DNA of 64,000 nt, taken from positions 128,654 through 192,653 of the forward strand of contig CAWCIU010000004.1 of the NCBI GenBank assembly GCA_963795735.1, written 5' to 3'. The notes beneath the pieces are model-generated. The model was given only the letters and a program-made list of their open reading frames with translations, was not told where the DNA came from and did not search any database. Within the stretch, counting starts at the first letter, position 1. Every line of letters begins with the position of its first letter. This stretch comes from an uncultured Acidobacteriota bacterium. GTDB taxonomy: Bacteria > Acidobacteriota > Thermoanaerobaculia > Multivoradales > UBA5704. Made by a program: the position numbers and the translations under genes. Below are positions 18,605-31,257 of the stretch, one piece after another.

Positions 18605-18751
18605 TTCCCGCCGCATCCCTTGCGTTGCGGGTTGTCTTTTGGAAGGGGGATGTCATGAAAGAATGGCTCCGGATCGTCGGCGCGGCGTCCGTGCGGCGGC
18701 GTGAGCTGCGGCGGCCGTCCCTGGAGAGGGAGGCCGGATGAAGGAGACCGG

Positions 18752-20473
18752 ATGAAGATGAACAGATCCCCCATCATCCTGCCGACCTTGCTGACGTTCG
18801 CACTCTTCCTGCCGCCCCCCGCCCGGGCCGCCTCCGCGCCGGCGCCTGCCGGCACCGGCGGCGCGGTGGCGGCGGCCGACCCGCTGGCCGTGCAGGCGGG
18901 GCTCGAGAGCCTGCGCGCCGGAGGAAACGCCGTGGACGCCGCGGTGACCACCGCCCTGGTGCTCGCGGTGGTCTATCCGGAGGCGGGCAACCTCGGGGGG
19001 GGTGGGTTCGCGGTGCTGCGGATGGGCGGCGACTTCGCCACGCTCGACTTCCGCGAGACGGCGCCGGCGAAGGCGCGGCGCGACATGTACCTCGACGCCC
19101 AGGGCCAGCCGGTCGAGAACGCCTCGCTGGTGGGGCCGCTCTCCGCCGGCGTGCCCGGCTCGCCCGCCGGCCTCTACGAGCTGCAGCGGCGCTATGGCCG
19201 GCTCCCCTGGGCGCGGGTGGTGGCCCCGGCCCGGCGGCTCGCCGCCGAAGGCTTCCGTGTCGACCGCCACCTCCACGACCTCCTCGGCCTGGAGGAGACC
19301 CGCAAGCTCCTGCAGGGCTTCCCCGAGAGCGCCCGGGTGTGGCTACCGGGCGGCCGGCCGCCGGCGATCGGCAGCCTGCTGCGGCTGCCCGATCTCGCGG
19401 CGACGCTCGACCGCTACGCCGCGCGGGGGCCGCAGGCGATCACCGCCGGCCCGGTCGCCGGCGCGATCGAGCGGGCGTCGGCCGCGCACGGCGGCGTGCT
19501 CACCGCCGCCGACCTCGCCGCCTACCGTCCGGAATGGCGCCCGCCGCTCACCTTCGAAGCCTTCGGCTGGAAGCTCGTCTCGATGCCCCTCCCCTCCTCG
19601 GGAGGGGTCATCCTCGACCAGACGCTCGGCATGCTCGAGCGGCTCGGCTGGGGCAAGCTTCCCCGCTTTGGCGCCGACCGCGACCACCTGCTGGCCGAGG
19701 TCTTGCGGCGCGCCTTCGCCGACCGCTTCCGGCTGGGGGATCCGGCGACCACCGGGGCGACCCCGGCGCAGCTCCTCGCCCCCGCCTGGATCGCCCGGCG
19801 GACGGAGCAGATCGACCCCCGGCGCGCGACGCCGTCCACCGAGGTCAAACCCTGGCCGGGCACCGAAGCGGCTCCGGCCGGCGGCAGCGAGACCACCCAC
19901 CTCTCGGTGGTCGATCGCGACGGCAACCTGGTGGCCCTCACCACCACGCTCAACAACCTCTTCGGCTCCGGGCTGTGGGTGCCGGGAGCGGGGTTCTTCC
20001 TCAACGACGAGATGGACGATTTCACCACCGCTCCGGGCAAACCCAACCTCTTCGGCCTCGTCCAGGGGGAAGCCAACGCCGTGGCCCCGGGCAAGCGGAT
20101 GCTCTCCTCGATGGTCCCGGTCATCGCCTGGAAAGAGAAGGAGGCGTATGCCCTGGGCGGGCGCGGCGGCTCTCGAATCCCTACCAACACCCTCCAGGTG
20201 CTGCTGAACCTATTGGTGGACGGCGACCCCCTGCAGGCCGCGCTCGACCGCCCGCGCCTGCATCACCAGTGGCTTCCCGACCGCGTGGAGGCCGAGCCCG
20301 ACGCCCTCTCGCCCGAGACGCGCGCCGAGCTCGAGCGGCGCGGCCACACGGTCCAGGTCAGCACCAGCACCGCCAAGATCCACGCCGTCCATCTCCTCCC
20401 GGACGGCCGCGTCGAGGCCGCCTCCGACCCGCGAGGCACTGGGATCGGAGGGGTGGTCGACCCGGAACGCTGA
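18752..20473 (+). CDS. ggt: Gamma-glutamyltranspeptidase
   Basis: Signal peptide, GGNAVDAAV, GNLGGGGF and the autoprocessing site SETTHLSVVD. ATG at 18752 follows AAGGAGA. Confidence 0.9.
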   Translation: MKMNRSPIILPTLLTFALFLPPPARAASAPAPAGTGGAVAAADPLAVQAGLESLRAGGNAVDAAVTTALVLAVVYPEAGNLGGGGFAVLRMGGDFATLDFRETAPAKARRDMYLDAQGQPVENASLVGPLSAGVPGSPAGLYELQRRYGRLPWARVVAPARRLAAEGFRVDRHLHDLLGLEETRKLLQGFPESARVWLPGGRPPAIGSLLRLPDLAATLDRYAARGPQAITAGPVAGAIERASAAHGGVLTAADLAAYRPEWRPPLTFEAFGWKLVSMPLPSSGGVILDQTLGMLERLGWGKLPRFGADRDHLLAEVLRRAFADRFRLGDPATTGATPAQLLAPAWIARRTEQIDPRRATPSTEVKPWPGTEAAPAGGSETTHLSVVDRDGNLVALTTTLNNLFGSGLWVPGAGFFLNDEMDDFTTAPGKPNLFGLVQGEANAVAPGKRMLSSMVPVIAWKEKEAYALGGRGGSRIPTNTLQVLLNLLVDGDPLQAALDRPRLHHQWLPDRVEAEPDALSPETRAELERRGHTVQVSTSTAKIHAVHLLPDGRVEAASDPRGTGIGGVVDPER

Positions 20474-20570
20474 CGGCGGCGTAGATTTTTTCGGACAGCC
20501 CGCCCGAGGCTCTCCCAGGGAGCCGGCGCGGCACGCGCTTTGCGGTAGAGCCTGGAGGAGGCTACGCGCC

Positions 20571-21686
20571 ATGCCGCCGAAACCGAATCTCTGGCCCGCC
20601 GCGAGGGCGCTTCTCGCGTTGGCGGCTCTCGCCGCTGCCGCCGCCGCTCAACCGCCGCAGAGGCCGCAAACGTCACCAACGTCGCAGACGTTCACCGGCC
20701 AGCTCGTCGTCCGCGAGCGGGAGATCGTGGTCGACCTCCCCGACAACGTCTCCGGCAAGCCCCTCCGACCAGGGGACTTCCAGGTGCTGGTGGACGGACA
20801 GCCCCGCGAGGTCACGCGAGCGGCGCCGGTCTCCCGGGAGGGCCCCGCGCCCTGGACCTTCCTCATCTACGTCGACCGCGTCCTGGCGAGCTCCGGCACC
20901 GCCTTCTACTCGGAGCTAGCCCTTGCCGAGCACGCCGGGGACCTGGCCCGCCTGGGTATGGTCGAGGTGGCCGTCGCCCGCTCCGACCCCGGCACCCGGC
21001 TCTCCCCCACCCGGGAGGCGCGGAAGATCGGGCAGACGCTCGCCGGGCTGGCCGGCGCCGACCGGCTCGAACGGGACCGCGGCCGCGGCGCGGAGCCCCA
21101 ACCGCCTTCCGACGTCCAGGTCCGCCGGCAGCTCGAAAAGCTGCTCGCCTTCGTCGCCTCCCGCCGTCCCTCGGGGCCGCGCGTCCTTTTTCTGGTGGCC
21201 GACGGCGCCGACCTGGCGACGGAGGCCCGCAGCGCCGCCTTTCACCGTGCCGCGGACCTCCTCGCGGCTCGCGGATGGATCGCCGTCCCGATGGCGGTGC
21301 GCCCGGACAACCCGGGGGCTCCGGTCGCTCCCCGGGCGGAAATCGACCTCTTTCGCGAAGGAGCGGGCCCGTCGGGCCACACGATCAGCCCGCCGCCGGT
21401 CTTCCATGCCCACGGGCAGAAGCGGTCGGCGCTCGCCTACCCCCGCGTGATCGACCTCTTCACCGATCCCAAGATGGCTACCCTCCATGTCCTCAGCTCG
21501 ACCACGGCGGGCGCGATGATCGGCTATGGCGTCCAGCTTCCCGCGCTTCTCGCGGAGCTGCCGCGCCGCTGGATGATCTCGATCGCCGAGCCGGATTCGC
21601 CGCCCGTGGAAGGCCGCCTGCACACCCTCGCGGTGAGACTCCCCGGACGGAAGACGGAAGCGCGGGCGCCCGCCTGGCTGCCCTAG
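20571..21686 (+). CDS. Secreted VWFA-related (acidobacterial-type) domain protein
   Basis: Signal peptide followed by ...VVDLPDNVSGKPLRPGDFQVLVDGQPREV..., a pattern typical of the VWFA-related acidobacterial domain family (recalled, not searched). Confidence 0.45.
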   Translation: MPPKPNLWPAARALLALAALAAAAAAQPPQRPQTSPTSQTFTGQLVVREREIVVDLPDNVSGKPLRPGDFQVLVDGQPREVTRAAPVSREGPAPWTFLIYVDRVLASSGTAFYSELALAEHAGDLARLGMVEVAVARSDPGTRLSPTREARKIGQTLAGLAGADRLERDRGRGAEPQPPSDVQVRRQLEKLLAFVASRRPSGPRVLFLVADGADLATEARSAAFHRAADLLAARGWIAVPMAVRPDNPGAPVAPRAEIDLFREGAGPSGHTISPPPVFHAHGQKRSALAYPRVIDLFTDPKMATLHVLSSTTAGAMIGYGVQLPALLAELPRRWMISIAEPDSPPVEGRLHTLAVRLPGRKTEARAPAWLP

Positions 21687-24600
21687 CCGGCGGCCCGCAG
21701 CTCTTCGGCCGCCTGGTCGAGGACCACGCGCAGGGTCTCTCCCAGGGTCTGCGGAGAGAACGGCTTCTGCAGGCAGACCGGTGACCCCGGTCCGCCGTCG
21801 GAGAGCTGCTCGTCGTTGTAGCCCGACATGAAGACGATCCGGGTCAGGGGACGCTCGGCGCGCAGCCGCTGGGCGAGCTCCGTCCCCTTCATCTCCGGCA
21901 TCGTGACGTCGGTCAGCAGCAGGTGGACGGCGCCGCGGTGGAGGCGCGAGATGACCAGCGCCTCCTCGCCGGACCCCGCCTGGAGCACCCGGTACCCCCG
22001 GCTGACCAGGATCTGGTGGAGCACCGTCCGCACCTCGTCCTCGTCCTCCACCAGCAGGACCGTCTCCGAGCCGCGGTCCGAGATGCCGGCCGGCACGCCG
22101 GCCCGCACCCCCTCGATCTCGCGGGTGACCGGCAGGTAGATCGAAAAGCAGGCCCCCTGCTCCGGCGCGCTGTTGACGAAGATCTGGCCGCCGCTCTGGC
22201 GGACGATGCCGTAGGCGGTCGAGAGGCCCAGCCCCGTTCCCTCGCCCTTGGTGCTGAAGAAAGGCTCGAAGACGCGCGCCTGGGTGACGGCGTCCATGCC
22301 GGCGCCGGTGTCGGTCACGGTCAGCAGGACGTAGGACCCCGGCGGCACGTCGTCATGGGGCGCGGGGTGGTCGAACGTGACCTCCAGCGGCACGGTGCGC
22401 AGGATCAGGCGCCCCCCGGCGGGCATGGCATGGCGGGCGTTCACGGCGAGGTTGACGATGACCTGCTCGAGCTGCCCGGGATCGATCTTGACCTTGCCGA
22501 GCTCCGGGTGGAGGTTGGCGCCCAGGTGGATGTCCTCGCCGAGGAGCCGCTGGAGCATCTTCTCGAGCCCCGTGACCACCCCGTTCAGATTCATCACCCG
22601 GGTCTCCATCGGCTGCCGGCGGGCGAAGGCGAGGAGCTGCTTGGTGAGGGCGGCCGCCCGCTGGCCCGCCTCCTTGATCCCGGTTAGGTTGCGGGAGAGG
22701 AACGGGTCCTCCTGGTAGTGCTCGAGCAGCAGGTCGCTATAGCCGAAGATGGCGAGCAGGCAGTTGTTGAAGTCGTGGGCGACGCCGGCCGAGAGGCGGC
22801 CGATGGCCTCCATCTTCTGCGAGTGCAGGAGCTGGCGCTGGAGCGTCTTGTTCTCGGCCTCGTCGCGCTTGCGCTGGGCGATGTCGCGGATGGCGACCAC
22901 CGAGACCTCCTCGCCCTGGAAGAGATAGCGTTTGCCGGCGATCTCGATGTCGACCGTCGCGCCGTCCCGCTGGAAGCCGACGCTCTCCCGCGGCACCCCC
23001 TCGAGATCGACCTCGTCGGCGACCAGGTCGGAGAGCCGGCGGCCGAGGAGCTCGTCGGGCGGGCAGCCGAAGATCGTGAGGAGCGCCTGATTGACCTCCA
23101 GCACCACGCCGTTGCGGACGATGGCGATCCCCTCGAGGGTGGCCTCGAACAGGGTGCGGAAGCGCTCCTCGCTGCGCCGGATCTCCTCCTCGGCCGCCTT
23201 GCGCTGGGCGATCTCCTGCTGCGCCTTTTCGTAGAGGCGGACGTTCTCCGCCATCGGGGCGATCTGGTTGGCGACCGTCGACAGCAGGCGGATGTCGCTG
23301 GTCGGGAAGAAATCGTCCGGATCGCGCCGGCCGATCAGCCAGACGCCGACCGTCTGGGCCTGGAGGACCAGCGGGATCACCAGCCGCACCCAGGAGAGGG
23401 CGGGGTCGCCGGGGCCCTGCCCCAGGTAGCGGCCGCTCTGGGCGAGCAGCACCTGGAGGGTCTCCCGCGTCGGCTCCGCCGCGCCGGCCGGCACGGCCTG
23501 CTCGTAGAGGGTCTCCTTGCGCCCCTCCTCCAGCAGGTAGAGCGCCGACTGGCGGATCAGCAGGGTGGGCAGGATCTCCTCGGCGACGACGCGCCCCAGG
23601 GCCTCGCGGTCGAAGGCGGTGGGGATGCGCTCCGAGACGATGCCGATCACCTCCTCCGGCGAGTGCTTGATGCCGAAGACGTAGCGGTCCACCAGCGCCT
23701 GGAACCGGTCGCGCAGGAGCGGCACGGCCGCCATGTACACCAGCGAAACCGCCAGCAGGGTGGCCAGGAAGTCGACGCTGATGGTCTTCCAGTGGCTGCA
23801 GATGGCGAAGAAGACGATCGTGTACGACGAGAACAGGAGCGCCGAGAAGGTGTAGGTGCCCAGGAAGCGGTTGGCCCGCAGCTCCAGCGCGCCGAGATGG
23901 TGCTTGTAGATGGCGTAGATGTAGCTCATCGGCAGGATCGGGATCGACGCCGCCGAGATGCCCAGCATGAAGGGATAGAACGGCCGGAAGTCCTTCCCCT
24001 CCAGGGCCATGTGCCGGAACCAGACGAGCAGCACGCCGTGGAACACCACGAACGGCACCAGCCCCAGGGTGACGCCATACAGCATGATGCGCACGGCGAC
24101 CTTGGTCGCCGGATCGACCGGCAGAAAGAGACGGACGAGGAGCAGACCCACGGAGAGCAGGACGGCCGCCGCGGTGTACCAGACGAACAGATAGCCGAGC
24201 TTCTGGAGCAGCAGCAGGGAATCAAGGAACGTCAGGACCAGGGCCGCGGCGTAGAAGAAGGCCTGCACCCCCCGTTGCAGCCGTCTCCCCAGCAGATCGC
24301 TGGGCAGGATCGTATGGAGGTGGACCGCCAGTGGCAGGAAGAACCAGATCGCGACGTGGAAGACGTAGGACGCGTAGCTCGTCCGCGCCGCGAACCCCGA
24401 CGCGATCCACAGCGCGGTCACATAGCTGAAGAGGATCAGCACCAGCCAGCGCTCGTCGCGGGGGCGCAGGAAGATGATGACGATCGTTCCCATCAGCCAG
24501 AAGATGATCGGCGCGAATATGGAGTAGAGCAGCTGCGAGATCTCCACGCGCTCCGCCCGGACGCGGATGACGCGATCGAGCAACTGCCCCCTCCGGATCA

Positions 24601-24907
24601 GCCGCACCGGCGCGACGCCCCGGGCGTCGAACAGATCGGGGACCGACAGCCGGCGGTCGCGCATGAATTGCTGGTAATCGACCCCCGCGATCGAGAGGAC
24701 CTCGTCGCCGACCTCGAGACAGGTCTGGGGCGGCCCCTCGCAGGGAGGGGCGGAGACGACCTTCCAGTCGGAAGCGCTCAGGGTGAAGCCGAGATCGGGG
24801 AAGGAAGAGACGTAGGAGTAGAACAGACAGGGCAGCAGGACGAGCAGGGAGACGAGGACCAGGAAGAGGTCCAGGGTCTTCCAGGAGGAGGAATTCCGGG
24901 CATCCAT
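21683..24907 (-). CDS. Hybrid sensor histidine kinase with polytopic (about 10-11 TM) sensor, PDZ-like loop, GAF, PAS, HisKA, HATPase and REC
   Basis: TM1 followed by LEVGDEVLSIAGVD (PDZ-like), then many TM helices. Also a PAS region (ERFRTLFEATLEGI), H-box GVAHDFNN, a G-box and a C-terminal receiver (LLLTDVTMPEM). Start chosen at the ATG at 24907. Confidence 0.85.
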   Translation of the reverse strand: MDARNSSSWKTLDLFLVLVSLLVLLPCLFYSYVSSFPDLGFTLSASDWKVVSAPPCEGPPQTCLEVGDEVLSIAGVDYQQFMRDRRLSVPDLFDARGVAPVRLIRRGQLLDRVIRVRAERVEISQLLYSIFAPIIFWLMGTIVIIFLRPRDERWLVLILFSYVTALWIASGFAARTSYASYVFHVAIWFFLPLAVHLHTILPSDLLGRRLQRGVQAFFYAAALVLTFLDSLLLLQKLGYLFVWYTAAAVLLSVGLLLVRLFLPVDPATKVAVRIMLYGVTLGLVPFVVFHGVLLVWFRHMALEGKDFRPFYPFMLGISAASIPILPMSYIYAIYKHHLGALELRANRFLGTYTFSALLFSSYTIVFFAICSHWKTISVDFLATLLAVSLVYMAAVPLLRDRFQALVDRYVFGIKHSPEEVIGIVSERIPTAFDREALGRVVAEEILPTLLIRQSALYLLEEGRKETLYEQAVPAGAAEPTRETLQVLLAQSGRYLGQGPGDPALSWVRLVIPLVLQAQTVGVWLIGRRDPDDFFPTSDIRLLSTVANQIAPMAENVRLYEKAQQEIAQRKAAEEEIRRSEERFRTLFEATLEGIAIVRNGVVLEVNQALLTIFGCPPDELLGRRLSDLVADEVDLEGVPRESVGFQRDGATVDIEIAGKRYLFQGEEVSVVAIRDIAQRKRDEAENKTLQRQLLHSQKMEAIGRLSAGVAHDFNNCLLAIFGYSDLLLEHYQEDPFLSRNLTGIKEAGQRAAALTKQLLAFARRQPMETRVMNLNGVVTGLEKMLQRLLGEDIHLGANLHPELGKVKIDPGQLEQVIVNLAVNARHAMPAGGRLILRTVPLEVTFDHPAPHDDVPPGSYVLLTVTDTGAGMDAVTQARVFEPFFSTKGEGTGLGLSTAYGIVRQSGGQIFVNSAPEQGACFSIYLPVTREIEGVRAGVPAGISDRGSETVLLVEDEDEVRTVLHQILVSRGYRVLQAGSGEEALVISRLHRGAVHLLLTDVTMPEMKGTELAQRLRAERPLTRIVFMSGYNDEQLSDGGPGSPVCLQKPFSPQTLGETLRVVLDQAAEELRAAG

Positions 24908-25150
24908 GATCGTCGATCGTCGAAGGACAAAACGCGTCGAAGGGCGGAACGCCAGCGGCGCGCTCCATCGCGCCCCTTGCCGCGCCATCTCCTTGAAACC
25001 GCGATTCGCTGCGCCTTTATAGCAGGCTTGGCCGGCTGCGGTCCAGCCGGAAGACGGCGTAACGGCCGCCAGCCCCCGGGAAAAAGCCCGGGGGCCGCGC
25101 GGACACTGACAGGGAGACCGTGAGGACCGGGCCCGACCGCCGACGGGCGG

Positions 25151-25342
25151 TCAAGCGTTCGCGATCCTGAGGTTCGAGCCGCCGGCATCGTCGGCCGGCG
25201 GCCACTCCATCCAGCCGGACGGCGAGGCGTCCTGCACCGCCTTCAGGTCGAGCCCTCCCAGCCGGTGCAGAATCTCGAACAGGAAAGTCTTTTCGTTCTT
25301 GGCCGCGAAACGGGACACGAATTCAGTCATTGACATGATCAT
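25151..25342 (-). CDS. Short ORF A: candidate ComX-like precursor peptide (W-x-x-WPP motif)
   Basis: 59-63 aa; three in-frame ATGs at 25342/25336/25330 lie just after GGAGGG. Paralogous to ORF B (shared F.S...E..LF..L..L ... W..WPP..D.GS). Same strand as the flanking enzyme and kinase. Confidence 0.55.
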   Translation of the reverse strand: MIMSMTEFVSRFAAKNEKTFLFEILHRLGGLDLKAVQDASPSGWMEWPPADDAGGSNLRIANA

Positions 25343-25668
25343 CCCTCCTACGGGGAAAGTTCAAACCTTTCAAGGCTTGAGGGTTCGATTCGAGAAGAAC
25401 GGGACGGGAGGAGGCCTTGGGGGGGCCGCGCGCGGAGGTCCGCCCGGCGGGGATGGCCCCTGCCGCGGGCGGCACGGAATCGTGGATGTCGCGGGGCGAA
25501 GAGATCGGGACCGCAGGAAGATTCTCGCTCGGCCAGGGCGGCCGGAGGACCTTGACTGCGCTGCTCAACGTACCGAAGCAGAACGTGAGCATTTCAACTC
25601 CCTCGAGCGTCTTCCGGTATCCCCGGGCGGACGCTGCAAGTATACGCCGCGATGAAAAACCGGACCTC

Positions 25669-26622
25669 TCAGCGCAATACCAGCGCCATGGGATCCTCGA
25701 CGCCGACCTTCTCCAGCAACCGGTACAACGGCTGCGTATGGATCTCGAGCAGACGCTCGATCGGTTCCGGATTGCGGAGCGGAACGCGGGCGAACAATTC
25801 CCGCAGCTCTCGCGAAAATTCGATCAATTTCAACGTGCAATAACTGACCGCGCCGCTGCGGAACAGGATCTTCTGCGCCTCGGCGAGCGCCTCCGGGTCC
25901 TCGGTCCGCGCCGACAGGTGGAGAAAGTCCTCCCGGTCGGCGTGCTCGGCGGTCATCGCGTACAGCAGCGGCAGGCTGTTGGAGCGCCGCTGCCAGTCCG
26001 CGCGCGCCGGCGTCTCGAGCGCGTCCGTGAGATCGTCGCTGACCTGGATGAAGAGGCCCAGGATCCGCCCCAGACGCGCCAGGTGATCCGCCGTTCCAGG
26101 CGAGGCGCCGCCGAGCAGAGCGCCCATGCGCAGCGCCTCGCCGAACAGCGGCGGCGTCTTGGTCTCCACTACCCGCCAGTATTCCTGCTCGCTCGCCAGC
26201 TCCCGCGCGTCGAGGTTCTGCCCATAGCAGGTCGCGAGCGACATCTTGGCGAAGCTCGCCTGCAGCGCCGCGCGGATCTCCGCGGAGGCATCGGCCTGCT
26301 CGAGCAGCAGATGACCCGCGGCCTGGAAGGCCAGCCCCAGGTTCGCCGCCGGTCCGATTCCCAGCACCCGGTAATCGCCCCGGGGATCGTCGTCCAGCAT
26401 GTCGTCGACCAGATGGATGCTGATCACCGAGCAGAATACGGCCGCCGCCGCCGGCAGGGCCGCCGCTTCGCCGCCGCCGACCGCCAGGCAGGCGGAAATC
26501 GGATGCTCCCAGACCGAGAGCGACTCCTTGTGGACCATCCGTTCGACCAATCCGAGCATCTGTGGCCAGGAGGCGACAATCTCGAGATTGCGGACCCGGG
26601 ATTTCAATTCATCGAATTGCAT
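25669..26622 (-). CDS. Polyprenyl synthetase-fold protein (ComQ-like candidate peptide prenyltransferase)
   Basis: 317 aa from the ATG at 26622 (RBS GAGGAG). Both Asp-rich motifs are present: HLVDDMLDDD and QVSDDLTD. All-helical isoprenyl diphosphate synthase pattern. Confidence 0.75.
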   Translation of the reverse strand: MQFDELKSRVRNLEIVASWPQMLGLVERMVHKESLSVWEHPISACLAVGGGEAAALPAAAAVFCSVISIHLVDDMLDDDPRGDYRVLGIGPAANLGLAFQAAGHLLLEQADASAEIRAALQASFAKMSLATCYGQNLDARELASEQEYWRVVETKTPPLFGEALRMGALLGGASPGTADHLARLGRILGLFIQVSDDLTDALETPARADWQRRSNSLPLLYAMTAEHADREDFLHLSARTEDPEALAEAQKILFRSGAVSYCTLKLIEFSRELRELFARVPLRNPEPIERLLEIHTQPLYRLLEKVGVEDPMALVLR

Positions 26623-26748
26623 CGCAAACAACTCCTCTTTGCGAAACCTTTCAGATCGGACCCGGGGTTCGGCCCCGGGTCCGGACACTGCTTCAGGATC
26701 GGCACGAAATGATCAAGCAGATTTCATGCCTGCAAAAGCACCCTCTCT

Positions 26749-26937
26749 TCAGGCGTGCACGGCGACGAGCGAGCCGTCGCCACCCGGCGGCCAGGAGCCC
26801 CAGTCCACGTCGATCGTCACATCGCCGCTCGACATGAACTGGACATCCTCGACCAGGCTCAAGGTGCGCAGCGCCTGAAAGAGGTGACCCTCTTCGCTGC
26901 CGGACGTGAGCTTCGAATGAAAATCATGAATGTGCAT
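26749..26937 (-). CDS. Short ORF B: candidate ComX-like precursor peptide (W-x-x-WPP motif)
   Basis: 62 aa with RBS GGGAGAG 8 nt upstream of the ATG. Paralogue of ORF A, with C-terminal DVDWGSWPPGGDGS. Confidence 0.55.
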   Translation of the reverse strand: MHIHDFHSKLTSGSEEGHLFQALRTLSLVEDVQFMSSGDVTIDVDWGSWPPGGDGSLVAVHA

Positions 26938-27191
26938 TGGCGTAGCTCTCCCTCTGGAGGGACGCAGATCCCTCCGTCAAACGGTTAGTTGGTTTAAACA
27001 GAAAACAACAAGAGAAGGACGGTGTCGGAACCGTCAGGTGAGGCAGGCTGTCATGTAAAACCCCCCATCGAAATTAAAGAAAACAACATAACGGAAACGC
27101 AGGAGCGTGCACGTCCGTGCTCTCTAGTGTGACCAGACGAAGAGAGCGGGACAGCGACCTGCCGGTTTCCGGATCGAACTTGAAATTTCCG

Positions 27192-28362
27192 CTAGTGTAG
27201 TGGGTCCGATGTTCGGCAACTTCTGTTATCCTTTCCTGGTAGGGAATACCTCCAGGAGGGAACATGAAGGTAGCTGTCTCGATAGTCCTTTCGCCTGAGG
27301 AGAGGGCTGAGCTTGAGAAGCTTGCACGTGGCCGTAGGGTATCCGTGCGCGTGGCAGAGAGGGCGAGAATCGTCCTGCTGGCTGCTGAAGGCAAGCAGAA
27401 CCGAGAGATTGCTGAGATTTCTGGTGCAGCGCGACGGACAGTTGGTGTTTGGCGCCGTCGTTTTGCCGAGAAGCGGACCGTCGGCATCTTGAAGGATGCC
27501 CCTCGGGCCGGGAGGCTGCCTTCGATTGGCGAGGATGTAATTCGGGAGATCGTGCGCAAGACGACGCAAGAGACGCCAGTGGCGGGAACGCACTGGAGCA
27601 CCCGTAGTCTGGCCAAGATGATGGGGCTGAGCCCGAGCACGATCGGTCGTGTCTGGAGACGTCATGGCCTGAAGCCTCACCTGACTCGAACCTTCAAATT
27701 GAGTCGGGATGCGAGGTTCGTGGAGAAGTTGGAGGATGTCGTCGGTCTTTACCTGAACCCTCCAGAGCATGCGCTGGTTTTCTCTGTCGATGAAAAAAGC
27801 CAAATTCAGGCGCTCGACCGCACCCAGCCAGGCCTTCCCCTTGTGCCGGGCCGCCATGGCACGATGACCCACGACTACAAGCGCCACGGAACGACGACAC
27901 TGTTCACTGCGCTCAATACGCTGAACGGGAAGGTGATCGGGACCTGCATGCCGCGGCATCGCCATCAGGAGTGGATTAAGTTCCTGAGCCTCATTGACCG
28001 AGAGACCCCGAAGAGCCCGGAGATTCATCTGATCGCGGACAACTATGCGACTCACAAGCATCCGAAGGTTCAAGCTTGGCTGGCTCGCCATCCGCGGTTC
28101 AGGATTCATTTCACCCCAACCAGCGCCTCATGGCTCAACATGGTCGAAAGGTTCTTCCGTGACCTGACAGAAAACCGGTTGCGTCGGGGCATCTTTCGCA
28201 GCGTCGCAGATCTGGTTACGGCGATCCATGAGTATCTGGCTCGTCACAACGAAGATCCCAAACCCTTTATCTGGACGAAGACCGCAAGCGACATCCTTGA
28301 AAAGGTCACACGCGCTCGGCAGGCTCTGGTTAAGGACACATCTGTTTGACCCACTACACTAG
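27192..28362 (+). mobile_element. IS630-family insertion sequence
   Basis: Perfect terminal inverted repeats CTAGTGTAGTGGGTC (27192-27206) and GACCCACTACACTAG (28348-28362). Consistent with a TA target duplication (27193-94 / 28360-61). One transposase gene inside. Confidence 0.9.
27264..28349 (+). CDS. IS630 family transposase
   Basis: 361 aa with an N-terminal HTH ([18 protein letters not shown]) and a DDE domain: ...[13 protein letters not shown]..., [20 protein letters not shown]. Confidence 0.9.
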
Positions 28363-29636
28363 CGAGCGGAGCGGACGGCGCCGAGCGGCTCCAGGACGGC
28401 GCCGCTGTTGGCCGAGGAGCCGCCCTTGAGGATCTGGGCGAGCTCCAGGCCGGGCAGGGGTCGCTGGAAGAAATATCCCTGCGCATAGTCGATGCCGAGC
28501 AGGCGGAGCACCTCCGCGTCCTCGGCGGTCTCGACGGCTTCCATGACGGTGGCGGTGCCGGCGCGCGCCGCCATCTCGGCCGTGCTCTGCACGATGATCT
28601 GTTTGAACGGATCGTGGGCGAGGCCGCGGCAGAAGGTGCCGGATATCTTCAGAAAATCCGGGTGCAGATCCTGGAACAGATTGAGGTTCGACGAGCCCTC
28701 GCCGAAATCGTCGAGAGCGATGCGGAACCCTCGCTCGCGCAGCCGCTGCAGCGTCGCCGCGAAGGCGCTCGGATTGACGATCGTCTGCTGCTCGGTGAGC
28801 TCGAGGACGATGTCCTTCTCGGAAAAACCCGCCGAGTGCACCGCGTCGCAGAGCCGCGCCGCGAACTCGGGGTTGGTCAGCGACCGGGGCTGCACGTTGA
28901 GGAACGTGGCGATCGAGTTGCCGAGATGGACCACCTCGGTCAGGGCGGCGCGGATGCAGATCATGTCCGCTTCGAAGAGCAGCTCCTTCTGCGCCGCGTA
29001 GGCGAGGAAAACCGCGGGGCTTCCCAGGACCGAGCCGGCCGGTCCACGGGCGAGGCTTTCGACGCCGAACACCTCGAACCGGGTGGCGTCCTGGAGCCGG
29101 ACGACCGGCTGCAGCACGGCGCGGATCGGGTTGGCCGCCATGAACTCCTCGAGCAGCTCGACGTGCTGCACCTCCCCTTCTCCTTCGAAGACAAGGCCGG
29201 AGGAGAGCCGCGCGCGGCGGTCCAGCAGGTACCCCCGCAGCCGCGTGAGCCCCTCGGACTTCTCCAGCACCGCGGTGACGCCGAGCACGGAGCACAGATC
29301 GCGCACCGCCTGATCGACGTACCCGCTCAGCACGTAGACCGCCGTGTCGGGAAAGTTGGCGGTGACGAAACGGACGAGGCGCATGCCGTCCAGCCCGCCG
29401 AGCTGCGAGACGGAGAGATCGGTGATCACCACGTCGAAGCGGAAGCACCGGAGCAGCGCTTCGGCGGCTTCGATCTCCATGCAGGTGGTCAGCTCGACGC
29501 CGGGCAGCCGCAGACAGGCGGCCAGCGTGTCGACCACGATCGACTCATCATCGAGAATCAGCACCCGAAGCACGGCGTCAGTATCTTCCCGTCCGGGCGG
29601 GGAACCGCGGCCACGCGGCCCCGCAGACATCGGCAT
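28359..29636 (-). CDS. Response regulator receiver + EAL domain protein (c-di-GMP phosphodiesterase-like)
   Basis: REC (VLILDDE...VVITDLSV), then an EAL fold with the variant signature ESL, ELTEQ, ALDDFGEGSSNL, LKIS (usual KID changed) and GYFFQRP. The TAG stop lies at the IS630 junction. Confidence 0.85.
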   Translation of the reverse strand: MPMSAGPRGRGSPPGREDTDAVLRVLILDDESIVVDTLAACLRLPGVELTTCMEIEAAEALLRCFRFDVVITDLSVSQLGGLDGMRLVRFVTANFPDTAVYVLSGYVDQAVRDLCSVLGVTAVLEKSEGLTRLRGYLLDRRARLSSGLVFEGEGEVQHVELLEEFMAANPIRAVLQPVVRLQDATRFEVFGVESLARGPAGSVLGSPAVFLAYAAQKELLFEADMICIRAALTEVVHLGNSIATFLNVQPRSLTNPEFAARLCDAVHSAGFSEKDIVLELTEQQTIVNPSAFAATLQRLRERGFRIALDDFGEGSSNLNLFQDLHPDFLKISGTFCRGLAHDPFKQIIVQSTAEMAARAGTATVMEAVETAEDAEVLRLLGIDYAQGYFFQRPLPGLELAQILKGGSSANSGAVLEPLGAVRSAR

Positions 29637-29685: not shown

Positions 29686-31257
29686 TCAACCGTGGTTTCG
29701 AACGAAGGGCGGCTCCGGCTCGTTCCGGAGCTGCCACAGGACGCCGCCACCCTCTTCGGTCGCCGGCTGAGCGACCGGCTGGTAGAACCTTCCCAGACGG
29801 CCGTTCAGAGGGCGGTTCGGCGACATCTGCCAGGTGTAGACGTACTCCGCCCGGCGCTGCCAGGCGCCGAAGCGCAGGTGACCCGGATGGGCCTCGATGT
29901 CCTCGATCGGCGGCCACGGCGCCGAGTCGCGGAAGCGGACCGGGAAGTGGCTCGACGCCGCCTCGTAGTTGTCCCAGTCGACCAGTCCGCGCTCGAGGGC
30001 CCGGTAGCTCATGGCGTGGCCGAGCACGTCCAGCTTGGCGCCGTAGGTCTCGTGCGGGAAGAGCAGCGGCAGCACCCGGGTGTTGGGGCGGACCGGGTCG
30101 AGGCCGGCGAGATAACTCTCCATGCCACCGCTCAGCAGCCGGTACCGCTGGGCCACGTACCCGAGGTTGAGCAGGGCGACGACGGCCAGCGCCCCCACGG
30201 CGATCCGGCGCGTCCGCTCGCCGAAGCCGGGAGAGAGCCAGGGGATCAGGACCAGGTAGGGATAGAGGCAGAGCCGGTTCTTCAGCATCGTCCCACCCGA
30301 CATCCCCTCCGGGCTCAGGAAGTACAGGAGGGTGAACACGACGGCCAAGAGCAGAAACGGCTGCGCGTCCCGCCAGGGGCGGAGAAGCTCCCGGCGGTCC
30401 CGCCAGAGGGTGAGGGCGAGAAGGAGGAGGAAGACCCATGCCAGCCCCCGGGCGAGCTGTTCCTGCCGTCCGCCCAAGGGATCGAGCGCTCCCAGATGGA
30501 TGAAGTAGTGCAGCAGGCGCCGGAACGGCCAGTCGGAGGCGAGGGTGTCCCCCCCTTCCTTCGAGAAGTACCAGAGGGGCAGCAGGATCTGGGGCGCCAG
30601 GACCGGGATGTGCCACAGATGCCGCCGCCAGTTGTCGCGCCGCAACGTCGCCAGCCACAGGAAGGCGATGGCGAGCAGAGCCAGCGCGAAGGAGAGGATG
30701 TGCGACAGGTAGCATAGCCAGAGGAGCAGGTTGACGCCCACCGCGTAGCGGAGGCTCGCCGGCCGCTCCCGATGCCGCCACCAGAAGCCGAGCACCCAGG
30801 GGAACAGCGCCAGGCTCATCGAGAAGTTGTAGAACCCGAACTGGAACATGAAGTTGAAGACGAACGGGAAGGCCAGGAAGGCGAGCCAGCGGCCGCCGGA
30901 CCGCACCGATCCCGCGAGGTACCAGAACCCCGCGAGAAGCGTCAGCGCGTAGACGCTCACCAGCATCTTCTCCGCCACCAGCGGCGGCACGACGAACATC
31001 AGCAACGCCATGATCCCGTGGCCGATCCAGTTCGGGTAGGGCGCGGCGTTGATCTCGTAGTACCGGTGGAACAGTGGGTAGCCCTGGCCGTTCCCGTACT
31101 GCCGGAGGATCCAGGCGTTGTAGGTGTGGCACGGTCCGTCCACGGTAGGGAGATAGTGGACGATCCAGAACGGGAGAACGTAGAGCAGGGCCAGGAAGAA
31201 GAAGAGAGCGCGGGTCCAGCGCTCTTCCCGGTCGAGCTCCGTCATGGATCGTGTCAT
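29686..31257 (-). CDS. Large polytopic membrane protein, unknown function (glycosyltransferase-C-like topology)
   Basis: 523 aa with more than 10 TM helices followed by a soluble C-terminal domain. No motif recognised with confidence. Confidence 0.5.
   Translation of the reverse strand: MTRSMTELDREERWTRALFFFLALLYVLPFWIVHYLPTVDGPCHTYNAWILRQYGNGQGYPLFHRYYEINAAPYPNWIGHGIMALLMFVVPPLVAEKMLVSVYALTLLAGFWYLAGSVRSGGRWLAFLAFPFVFNFMFQFGFYNFSMSLALFPWVLGFWWRHRERPASLRYAVGVNLLLWLCYLSHILSFALALLAIAFLWLATLRRDNWRRHLWHIPVLAPQILLPLWYFSKEGGDTLASDWPFRRLLHYFIHLGALDPLGGRQEQLARGLAWVFLLLLALTLWRDRRELLRPWRDAQPFLLLAVVFTLLYFLSPEGMSGGTMLKNRLCLYPYLVLIPWLSPGFGERTRRIAVGALAVVALLNLGYVAQRYRLLSGGMESYLAGLDPVRPNTRVLPLLFPHETYGAKLDVLGHAMSYRALERGLVDWDNYEAASSHFPVRFRDSAPWPPIEDIEAHPGHLRFGAWQRRAEYVYTWQMSPNRPLNGRLGRFYQPVAQPATEEGGGVLWQLRNEPEPPFVRNHG

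Follow-up and report, generated by a model that had tools for sequence, protein, structure and literature searches.

A candidate ComQX-type modified-peptide signalling module with two W-x-x-W precursor genes in an uncultured Acidobacteriota bacterium

The stretch of DNA analysed here (the window, 64,000 nucleotides in full length) corresponds to positions 128,654 to 192,653 of contig CAWCIU010000004.1 in the assembly GCA_963795735.1 of an uncultured Acidobacteriota bacterium (Thermoanaerobaculia; Multivoradales; UBA5704). Two short paralogous genes, named X1 and X2 in this work and predicted to encode peptide precursors, lie on its minus strand, and located between them is Q, a gene for an enzyme with the fold of the trans-isoprenyl pyrophosphate synthases (trans-IPPS). 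The set is completed by a sensor histidine kinase (HK) gene and by the gene of a response regulator with a receiver and an EAL domain (REC-EAL), as listed in Table 1. An earlier note, made from the sequence alone, had singled out the two short open reading frames (ORFs) and omitted the rest of what proved to be a conserved module, i.e., the REC-EAL regulator and the sensor kinase.

X1 consists of the leader MHIHDFHSKLTSGSEEGHLFQALRTLSLVED, the core DWGSWPP and a tail of 11 amino acids (aa) past Pro-Pro, and its ATG is preceded at a distance of 8 nt by the Shine-Dalgarno (SD) sequence GGGAGAG. X2 is built in the same way from the leader MSMTEFVSRFAAKNEKTFLFEILHRLGGLD, the core GWMEWPP and a 14-aa tail past Pro-Pro. 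Counted from its first ATG, the X2 ORF covers 25151 to 25342, with the alternative upstream start at 25342; the ATG at 25336 (MSMTEF...) is the likely start, since AGGAGG is found 7 nt upstream of it, the public gene call for the exact X2 protein (P0210) also has 61 aa, and the resulting N-terminus follows the pattern of the family, M-x-[IM]-x-[DE]-F. Direct comparison of X2 with X1 by BLASTP gives a weak match (25% identity, E 2e-4). Leave-out profile hidden Markov models (HMMs) were built for the upstream-type and the downstream-type peptides from the sequences of other genomes only. The upstream-type model recovers X1 at E 3e-25 and X2 at E 2e-10, the downstream-type model recovers X2 at E 2e-20 and X1 at E 2.5e-18, and no further match at E<=10 was obtained among the 938 stop-to-stop ORFs of the window. 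Judged from these profile scores, the paralogy that had been claimed for the two ORFs is real. Scans of X1, X2 and 70 family members against Pfam and NCBIfam assigned them to no family, including ComX, NHLP and Nif11; even at E<=1, the ComX profile PF05952 was not matched by any member of the peptide family, and the NHLP and Nif11 profiles of both databases were matched by 0/70 members.

Table 1. Positions of the module genes and of the other features described in the text, numbered from the first letter of the window.
Feature	Positions	Strand	Description
X1	26749..26937	-	62-aa precursor, upstream type (ORF B of the earlier note)
X2	25151..25336	-	61-aa precursor, downstream type (ORF A of the earlier note)
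Q	25669..26622	-	317 aa, trans-IPPS fold, candidate peptide Trp prenyltransferase
Sensor kinase (P-like)	21683..24988	-	1101-aa hybrid histidine kinase, directly downstream of X2
REC-EAL response regulator	28359..29636	-	Pfam Response_reg + EAL, E 2e-48
IS630-family element	27195..28359	+	DDE_3 + HTH transposase at 27264..28349
Stem-loop GGAGGGA/TCCCTCC	26956..26975	-	Just 5' of the X1 SD
GC-rich 11-bp hairpin between X1 and Q	26657..26683	-	RNAfold z -5.2 (100-nt stretch 3' of the X1 stop)
GC-rich 10-bp hairpin between X2 and the kinase gene	25071..25096	-	RNAfold z -2.4

A scan of one genome per GTDB species yielded 76 Q-related loci. The search for homologues near related enzymes in other genomes, which the earlier note had suggested, was successful: the peptide HMM detected one to three homologous small ORFs beside Q in 70/76 loci, and these are found on the strand of Q except in one rearranged locus (L055). 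A later motif scan added two Myxococcota loci, L070 and L071, to those with homologues. One locus (L076), which holds only a distant synthase of 25% identity, was left out of the relevant loci, and an adjacent Trp-containing precursor is present in 72/75 of the latter; L063 and L066 are cut by contig ends, and no peptide gene was detected beside Q in L067. The commonest layout, seen in 52 loci, places Q between two peptide genes, the upstream one at a median distance of 140 nt and the downstream one at about 315 nt. From the 70 loci, 134 homologous small ORFs were extracted, among which W-x-x-W is retained in 131, and an SD core (GGAG, GAGG or AGGA at -18 to -4) precedes 129 of the 134, compared with 19% of random positions. 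A profile search of 1.84 billion representative proteins returned 286 clusters (50% identity) at E<=0.001, nearly all of them of 50-75 aa, and every named match in a search of 5.8 billion proteins was a 'hypothetical protein' without a Pfam domain. The peptide family spans three phyla, and full-text searches of the literature retrieved nothing on this family and no description of the system.

The peptides of this family are 45-104 aa long, mostly 56-66, and carry their Trp in the C-terminal part. Conservation reaches 100% for M1, F6 and the first Trp, 99% for the second Trp and 89-99% for the leader positions L, L and R, whereas only 46% and 37% of the members have the two Pro that come after it. 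The 'invariant W-x-x-W-P-P' of the earlier note therefore stands for the two Trp and falls for Pro-Pro; on these frequencies, W-x-x-W is family-wide and Pro-Pro is a trait of the clade of the window, in which a tail of 13-16 aa (including Pro-Pro) extends past the second Trp. In more distant members, W-x-[VIY]-W is followed by T, S, E or D. Conservation is seen in the leader, of about 35 aa; the hypervariable core and tail evolve faster than any other part of the locus. An AlphaFold2 (AF2) model based on a 100-sequence alignment predicts helices at residues 3-12, 18-27 and 31-35 and leaves the core and tail without structure, at a modest pLDDT of 64. Relatives with 2-4 W-x-x-W cassettes, spaced 12-17 residues apart, were also found (L040-L043, L048, P0272 with three cassettes, P0311 with two GWPEWP, L070, L071 and L073). 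Repeated cassettes behind a single leader are typical of the substrates in pathways to peptides made by ribosomes and modified after translation (RiPPs), and such multi-cassette precursors weigh against a role as a structural subunit. As far as can be told from the sequences, what characterizes a RiPP precursor is found here, namely a conserved leader, a variable core, a gene adjoining that of the maturase and multi-core forms. The proposal that the two ORFs are RiPP-type precursors, each combining a conserved helical leader with a Trp core, is thus supported by the conservation of the leader, the predicted helices (at their modest confidence), the fast-evolving core and tail, the multi-core forms and the ComQ-like enzyme of IPPS fold that the two genes flank.

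Several variants of this arrangement were observed in other genomes. Precursors with 2-4 cassettes and a single leader occur in the Myxococcota at L071 7938-8463, L070 6649-6921 and L073 6611-6925, and no kinase or EAL gene adjoins Q in these three loci. The first of them, Nannocystaceae bacterium ST9, is apparently an isolate, its record being without the labelling of a metagenome-assembled genome (MAG), and is a possible experimental entry point. A Chitinophagaceae MAG (L074 2122-2641) contains three tandem precursor genes of 45-53 aa upstream of a 37%-identical Q, with W-x-x-W motifs located 1-9 residues from the C-terminus (e.g., DWGNWGIWGN). Extra upstream precursor copies are found at L011 6350-6541 and L012 206-391, and the copy in L011, from which W-x-x-W has disappeared, resembles a pseudogene in decay. 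Another protein (P0237, 273 aa) comprises four near-identical copies of a unit in which DTWGNWPP follows a leader fragment; it reflects either an error of assembly or a tandem array that was read as one ORF.

The ratio of non-synonymous to synonymous substitution rates (dN/dS) of the peptides relative to distant orthologues is 0.17-0.8 and below 1 in all pairs, with dS near saturation, and for this reason reliance was placed on close relatives, in which Q is 94-98% identical to that of the window. Among these, the peptide dN/dS is 0-0.46: X2 differs from its counterparts in L079 and L081 by 0 non-synonymous and 1-3 synonymous changes and from that in L083 by 8 non-synonymous and 5 synonymous changes (dN/dS 0.46), X1 gives a dN/dS of 0.24 with third-position changes dominant, and Q gives 0.13-0.17. 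A neutral substitution pattern, which the earlier note had named as evidence that would speak against its reading, is not what is seen, and by these counts X1 and X2 are under purifying selection. In L079 and L081, the X2 protein is unchanged and X1 shows 6-8 residue differences; in L083 the reverse holds, with X1 unchanged and 8 differing residues in X2, whose dS is above that of Q. This mosaic pattern suggests allele exchange or pherotype switching, on counts that are small.

Other parts of the module evolve at different rates. In the close relatives, dN/dS is 0.4-0.94 for the extracytoplasmic domain of the kinase, 0.08-0.3 for its transmembrane (TM) bundle, 0-0.17 for its GAF/PAS part and 0.05-0.15 for REC-EAL. 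When the window is compared with closer relatives over the same genome pairs, identity amounts to 86-91% for REC-EAL, 81-89% for the catalytic part of the kinase, 76-88% for its GAF/PAS part, 66-82% for Q, 52-78% for the membrane sensor of the kinase, 25-83% for the peptide leader and 15-55% for the peptide core and tail. Conservation thus follows the order REC-EAL > HK catalytic > Q > HK membrane sensor > X leader > X core. This gradient parallels the polymorphism (pherotype variation) of ComQ, ComX and the N-terminal part of ComP (PMC4008528), and it can be regarded as supportive and not as decisive.

Q matches the Pfam family PF00348 (polyprenyl synthetase) at E 9e-17. Its longest ORF reaches 26688, and the ATG at 26622 agrees with all database homologues, of which more than 550 were found at E<=1e-5, mostly 317 aa in length and mostly from Thermoanaerobaculia and other Acidobacteriota MAGs. 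These homologues are annotated as 'geranylgeranyl pyrophosphate synthase' or 'polyprenyl synthetase', and one has been labelled ComQ by JGI. The AF2 model displays the all-alpha trans-IPPS fold (pLDDT 87), and a Foldseek search with this model returned geranylgeranyl pyrophosphate (GGPP) and polyprenyl synthases with TM-scores of about 0.7 at about 20% identity; the indole prenyltransferase Ord1 was found at rank 25 (TM-score 0.67) with 23%, the highest identity in the list. Q was not separable from ordinary synthases by Foldseek.

A motif alignment of 72 Q-family members with Escherichia coli IspA and Bacillus subtilis ComQ reveals which parts of the active site are shared. The first of the two aspartate-rich motifs (FARM, DD[MI]LD), the KT pair, the Gln before the second aspartate-rich motif (SARM) and the SARM itself (DDxxD) are kept in 72/72 members, and within GQxxD the Gln and the Asp are found in 72/72 and the Gly in 68/72. 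In the positions of IspA K45/R46/R48 (the GGKRLRP motif), by contrast, the Q family has L/S/W, the Trp being present in 71/72, and 72/72 members carry deletions that remove both IspA R95 (RRG) and the GKRQG loop of region VI. According to this alignment, Q has lost the basic residues that bind isopentenyl pyrophosphate (IPP) and has kept the motifs for the allylic diphosphate and Mg2+. The same deletions (the Arg of RRG and the region VI loop) are found in B. subtilis ComQ, and a C-terminal extension of about 60 aa is common to Q and ComQ and missing from IspA. The conserved Gln just upstream of the SARM has been described as a trait of the peptide prenyltransferases that resemble the trans-type synthases of isoprenyl diphosphates (trans-IDS-like), in which, according to a 2026 review, the SARM region is repurposed for Trp recognition and all characterized members act on Trp (PMC13290415). 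As this Gln also occurs in IspA, it is non-discriminating.

Profile comparisons were made with a ComQ query sequence that is 100% identical to P0362 and whose relatives bear the names 'Isoprenyl transferase (pre-ComX modification)' and 'ComQ'. In hhalign, the Q family aligns with the ComQ family at a probability of 51% (E 1.5e-4, 245 columns, 21% identity), with columns that take in the C-terminal extension lacking in IspA, and with IspA at 89% (E 2.5e-6, 139 columns), and the ComQ family aligns with IspA at 7% (E 0.0049, 143 columns). Because of these scores, the ComQ-like loss of the IPP site and the canonical SARM, Q appears to sit between the canonical synthases and ComQ. The NCBIfam synthase models place Q far below all their cut-offs (e.g., 54-85 bits against 450 and 475 for the two best models), and it is probable from the sequences that hundreds of proteins annotated as 'GGPP synthase' are not synthases.

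The kinase gene probably starts at the ATG at 24907 (MDARNSS...). Hydropathy indicates a first TM helix, an extracytoplasmic domain of about 90 aa and some nine more TM helices (about 10 in total), and the TM region is followed by the Pfam domains GAF, PAS, HisKA, HATPase and REC, while the N-terminal 497 aa matched no Pfam family. In 58 or more loci, the kinase gene is directly downstream of X2. REC-EAL, by its domains a probable phosphodiesterase of cyclic di-GMP (c-di-GMP), is encoded by the first gene of the conserved module, which is also the most conserved one, and in close relatives without an insertion sequence (IS) it adjoins X1 on the upstream side with a gap of about 255 nt. A tblastn comparison of the window proteins with the loci showed that the order REC-EAL, X, Q, X, HK on one strand is kept in 58/75 loci, the exceptions being for the most part truncated contigs. 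In Myxococcota and Chitinophagaceae, the loci contain X and Q only, among unrelated neighbours and without a kinase or EAL gene. Given that the X-Q pair occurs where the kinase and EAL genes are absent, X-Q is, on the synteny seen, the core unit, which the Acidobacteriota have coupled to two-component signalling.

Three genes in the vicinity share the synteny of the module only in closer relatives. These encode a 523-aa polytopic membrane protein with a weak PTPS_related match (29686-31257, minus strand), which is the most restricted, a 590-aa protein judged from its sequence to be a putative gamma-glutamyltranspeptidase (18701-20473, plus strand), and a 371-aa protein (20571-21686, plus strand). 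All three are probably outside the system. The IS630-family element, with 12-bp terminal inverted repeats GTGTAGTGGGTC and TA duplications at 27193-27194 and 28360-28361, is inserted exactly at the TAG stop codon of the REC-EAL gene. It parts REC-EAL from X1 in the window genome only and is absent from L079-L083, where the junction is contiguous; the insertion is recent and does not belong to the system.

The region of about 255 nt upstream of X1 (26938-27192, minus strand) is conserved across distant genomes, especially at 27036-27070, 27018-27035 and 26956-26975, and contains a conserved block, ATGGGGGG(A)-TT(G/T)ACATG..CTGCCTCACCTGACGG, as well as a terminator-like hairpin followed by a T-rich run. 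The spacer between the X1 SD and ATG, CTACGCCA, is nearly invariant, and the whole region may be a regulatory 5' leader. In the stem-loop near the X1 SD, the pairing is kept and the stem sequence varies between genomes; upstream-type genes (n = 77) have a median folding z of -2.3, with z<-2 in 57%. The hairpins located 3' of the precursor genes have no U-tract and are inconsistent in other loci, 25-34% of which have z<-2 (34% in the case of the hairpin between X1 and Q), and the two in the window may be attenuators or transcript-stabilising ends. In the interval of 20-32 kb, Rfam models gave nothing beyond a sub-threshold match to psaA RNA (20409-20485, minus strand; 23 bits against a gathering score of 50, E 0.054), which is probably due to chance. 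A sigma-70 promoter scan found nothing, one terminator-like site was located in the X1 leader, and RNAalifold on the X1 5' region was uninformative, with a poor MAFFT alignment. Another ORF between Q and X2 ('mid', 25323-25592, minus strand, 89 aa) has been called as a 69-73-aa gene in the annotations of L079, L081 and L082. It was rejected as a gene and is probably non-coding, given its dN/dS of 0.5-1 and changes that are even over the codon positions.

The closest parallel to be considered is the ComQXPA system of Bacillus, in which ComQ (family IPR033965) prenylates ComX on Trp, and the secreted pheromone, cyclised and carrying its prenyl group at C3 of the Trp, is sensed by ComP and ComA. 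There as well as here, an enzyme of the IPPS superfamily adjoins a precursor of about 60 aa with Trp in its C-terminal core, a polytopic histidine kinase is directly downstream of the precursor, and a response regulator is part of the cluster; also, neither GGKRxR nor RRG is found in the enzyme, region VI shows the same deletion, and the peptide and the sensor part of the receptor diverge fastest (PMC4008528). The ComX precursor has 52-73 aa, Trp in the C-terminal part and the Pfam family PF05952; X is similar in length and Trp and does not match PF05952, and ComX is itself highly variable. The earlier view that the peptides are related to ComX and yet distinct from it agrees with the evidence. 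There are several differences. No ComQXPA loci were found outside the Firmicutes in a 2014 census (PMC4008528), and the host of the window belongs to a Gram-negative-type phylum. Two paralogous precursors flank Q, and their W-x-x-W is invariant, while ComX has a single Trp. The second Asp-rich motif of ComQ is a pseudo-SARM (NDxxx; GDYYV in strain 168), compared with DDxxD in 72/72 members of the Q family, and the pseudo-SARM of ComQ and of StheQ (described below) binds no metal (bioRxiv 10.64898/2026.08.29.745113). The kinase is a HisKA hybrid with GAF and PAS and not of the ComP type, and the regulator is a REC-EAL protein (c-di-GMP) instead of the DNA-binding ComA (REC and GerE HTH). Finally, the order comQ-comX-comP-comA on one strand contrasts with REC-EAL, X, Q, X, HK, likewise on one strand.

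Two more recently described systems are also informative. PalPXQ of Paenibacillus alvei comprises a kinase, an NHLP-type precursor and a prenyltransferase, with PalQ located beside the histidine kinase (PMC10853753). The clustering of a kinase, a precursor and a trans-IDS-like Trp prenyltransferase and the leader-dependent RiPP logic are similar, whereas the leader of PalX is of the NHLP type and its Trp is strictly C-terminal, and X has a new leader family and, in the clade of the window, an internal Trp pair. PalQ forms its own sequence cluster, and Q was set beside it by description only. The StheQ/StheX pair of Sphaerobacter thermophilus extends the ComQ-like enzymes to the Chloroflexi (bioRxiv 10.64898/2026.08.29.745113). 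It shares with the window a ComQ-like enzyme outside the Firmicutes, an adjacent Trp peptide (of 69 aa), the IPPS fold and Mg2+ at the FARM; it differs, in a comparison by description, in its pseudo-SARM (N215 D216 .. D219) and in the modification of a single Trp second from the C-terminus, and no kinase or EAL context has been reported for it. The canonical trans-IPPS, such as the GGPP synthases, the farnesyl pyrophosphate synthases and IspA, resemble Q in fold (TM-score about 0.7), FARM, SARM, KT and GQxxD. Against this stand the identity of about 20%, the loss of the IPP residues, the C-terminal extension of about 60 aa and the constant linkage of Q to a precursor, and the hallmarks of a canonical synthase in region I (GGKRxR), RRG and region VI (GK..GK) are not found in Q. 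Those of the trans-IDS-like peptide Trp prenyltransferases (ComQ, PalQ, the P domain of ChrPC and StheQ), i.e., the fold with FARM, a remodelled IPP site, the Gln and an adjacent precursor, are all present, as far as sequence and model can indicate. On these comparisons, the module would work like ComQXPA, PalPXQ and StheQ; it departs from ComQXPA in gene order, in the types of ComP and ComA and in the pseudo-SARM, and its peptides do not match the ComX family profile.

Given these relationships, we read the locus as a ComQX-type modified-peptide signalling module, and we consider the chances of this reading to be somewhat better than even. X1 and X2 would be ribosomal precursors with a two-helix leader of about 35 aa, a short variable linker, a W-x-x-W core and a variable tail. 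Q would bind the leader and move a prenyl group, probably of C15-C20, from an allylic diphosphate to one or both Trp of the core, a chemistry modelled on that of ComQ, PalQ and StheQ. We infer the role of Q as a Trp prenyltransferase from the loss of the IPP site, the deletions shared with ComQ, the linkage to precursors and the fact that the known trans-IDS-like enzymes target Trp. The leader and perhaps the tail would then be cut off, and the lipidated peptide would exit the cell or enter the envelope, where the kinase could detect it through its fast-evolving extracytoplasmic domain or its TM bundle. Transfer of the phosphate from the kinase to REC-EAL would allow the peptide concentration to set the level of c-di-GMP and hence sessile or motile behaviour. 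It can be speculated further that soil Acidobacteria (Thermoanaerobaculia, Holophagales) secrete Trp-prenylated quorum or kin signals with pherotype-like diversification, perceived by a fast-evolving periplasmic receptor domain and with c-di-GMP degradation as the output, and that W-x-x-W is maybe doubly or bridge-prenylated; this extended proposal is made tentatively, its chances being well short of even.

Several points weigh against the proposed signalling role. The hhalign probability of Q is 51% against ComQ and 89%, over a shorter stretch, against IspA, Foldseek places ordinary GGPP synthases above Ord1, and the SARM of Q is a canonical DDxxD, unlike the pseudo-SARM of ComQ and StheQ. 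Two invariant Trp are without precedent in ComX, PalX and StheX. The cluster holds no protease, transporter or Hpt gene, and a hybrid kinase normally needs a histidine phosphotransfer (Hpt) step to reach a separate REC protein. Also, membrane and loop regions usually evolve fast, which weakens the argument from the divergence gradient.

Other explanations of the same genes have to be weighed as well. The product of X and Q may be a prenylated RiPP of the natural-product kind (an antibiotic, for example, or a lipopeptide active on membranes) and no dedicated signal, with the kinase and REC-EAL regulating its production or sensing envelope stress. Such a role, which we regard as unlikely, would suit the X-Q pairs found without a kinase or EAL gene in Myxococcota and Chitinophagaceae and the multi-core precursors, which are typical of natural-product RiPPs, and prenylation is known to raise membrane affinity and antimicrobial potency (PMC13290415). 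The cluster, however, contains no immunity, transporter or protease genes, the gene order is maintained in 58/75 loci, and the sensor domain of the kinase diverges together with the peptides, which fits a ligand-receptor pair better than a generic regulator. The lack of an exporter or protease gene would instead be expected if the prenylated peptide were unreleased and anchored in the membrane of the producer, acting in cis on the kinase, which it would modulate or assist as a lipidated co-sensor; the long tail of 13-16 aa past the second Trp in the clade of the window is compatible with this idea, and the approximately 10 TM helices of the kinase could bind a lipidated peptide within the membrane. 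We nevertheless hold such an anchored co-sensor to be improbable, as a core that diversifies fast, paired with a receptor domain outside the cytoplasm, is what marks systems of recognition between cells, such as ComX/ComP, and ComX is likewise without a known exporter (PMC4008528).

Only a slight chance is given to Q being a genuine prenyl diphosphate (GGPP) synthase with X as accessory subunits, as in the heteromeric hexaprenyl and heptaprenyl synthases. Although the public annotation, the intact FARM and SARM and the best PDB fold and sequence matches, which are canonical synthases, point in this direction, 72/72 members are without the Lys/Arg of region I, the first Arg of RRG and the GK loop of region VI, all NCBIfam synthase models remain far under their cut-offs, and peptides of 45-75 aa that have hypervariable cores and repeated W-x-x-W cassettes are unexpected of a structural subunit. 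The short ORFs might also be non-functional, either as chance ORFs in conserved non-coding DNA or as cis-acting Trp/Pro leader peptides that tune expression, given that WPP can slow ribosomes and that structured RNA elements flank the ORFs. This explanation is scarcely credible and is already contradicted by the data: conservation acts at the amino acid level with synonymous changes dominant, in contrast to the 'mid' ORF, the SD is present in 129/134 genes of a family found in three phyla, and W-x-x-W and the leader are retained even though more than half of the members have no Pro-Pro.

To our knowledge, Bacillus and related genera were for a long time regarded as the only bacteria with prenylated-Trp peptide pheromones. 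Homologous enzymes have been characterized only in 2023-2026, in Paenibacillus (PMC10853753) and in a Chloroflexi species (bioRxiv 10.64898/2026.08.29.745113). On the signalling interpretation that we favour, the locus extends the prenylated-Trp peptide principle to at least 60 species-level genomes of the Acidobacteriota, a dominant and poorly understood soil phylum, and simpler X-Q pairs are also found in Myxococcota and Bacteroidota. We know of no cell-cell signalling system in Acidobacteriota, for which the locus offers a testable one, together with a direct link from a peptide signal to c-di-GMP. What is new here are the leader family, the W-x-x-W acceptor motif, the duplicated flanking precursors, the host phyla and the c-di-GMP output, and the first two could also be exploited for peptide-lipidation biocatalysis. 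If the proposal holds true, a Gram-positive-style ComX system would operate in a Gram-negative-type phylum, with c-di-GMP degradation rather than transcription as its output, and double or bridging prenylation of W-x-x-W would be a modification unseen so far in any peptide.

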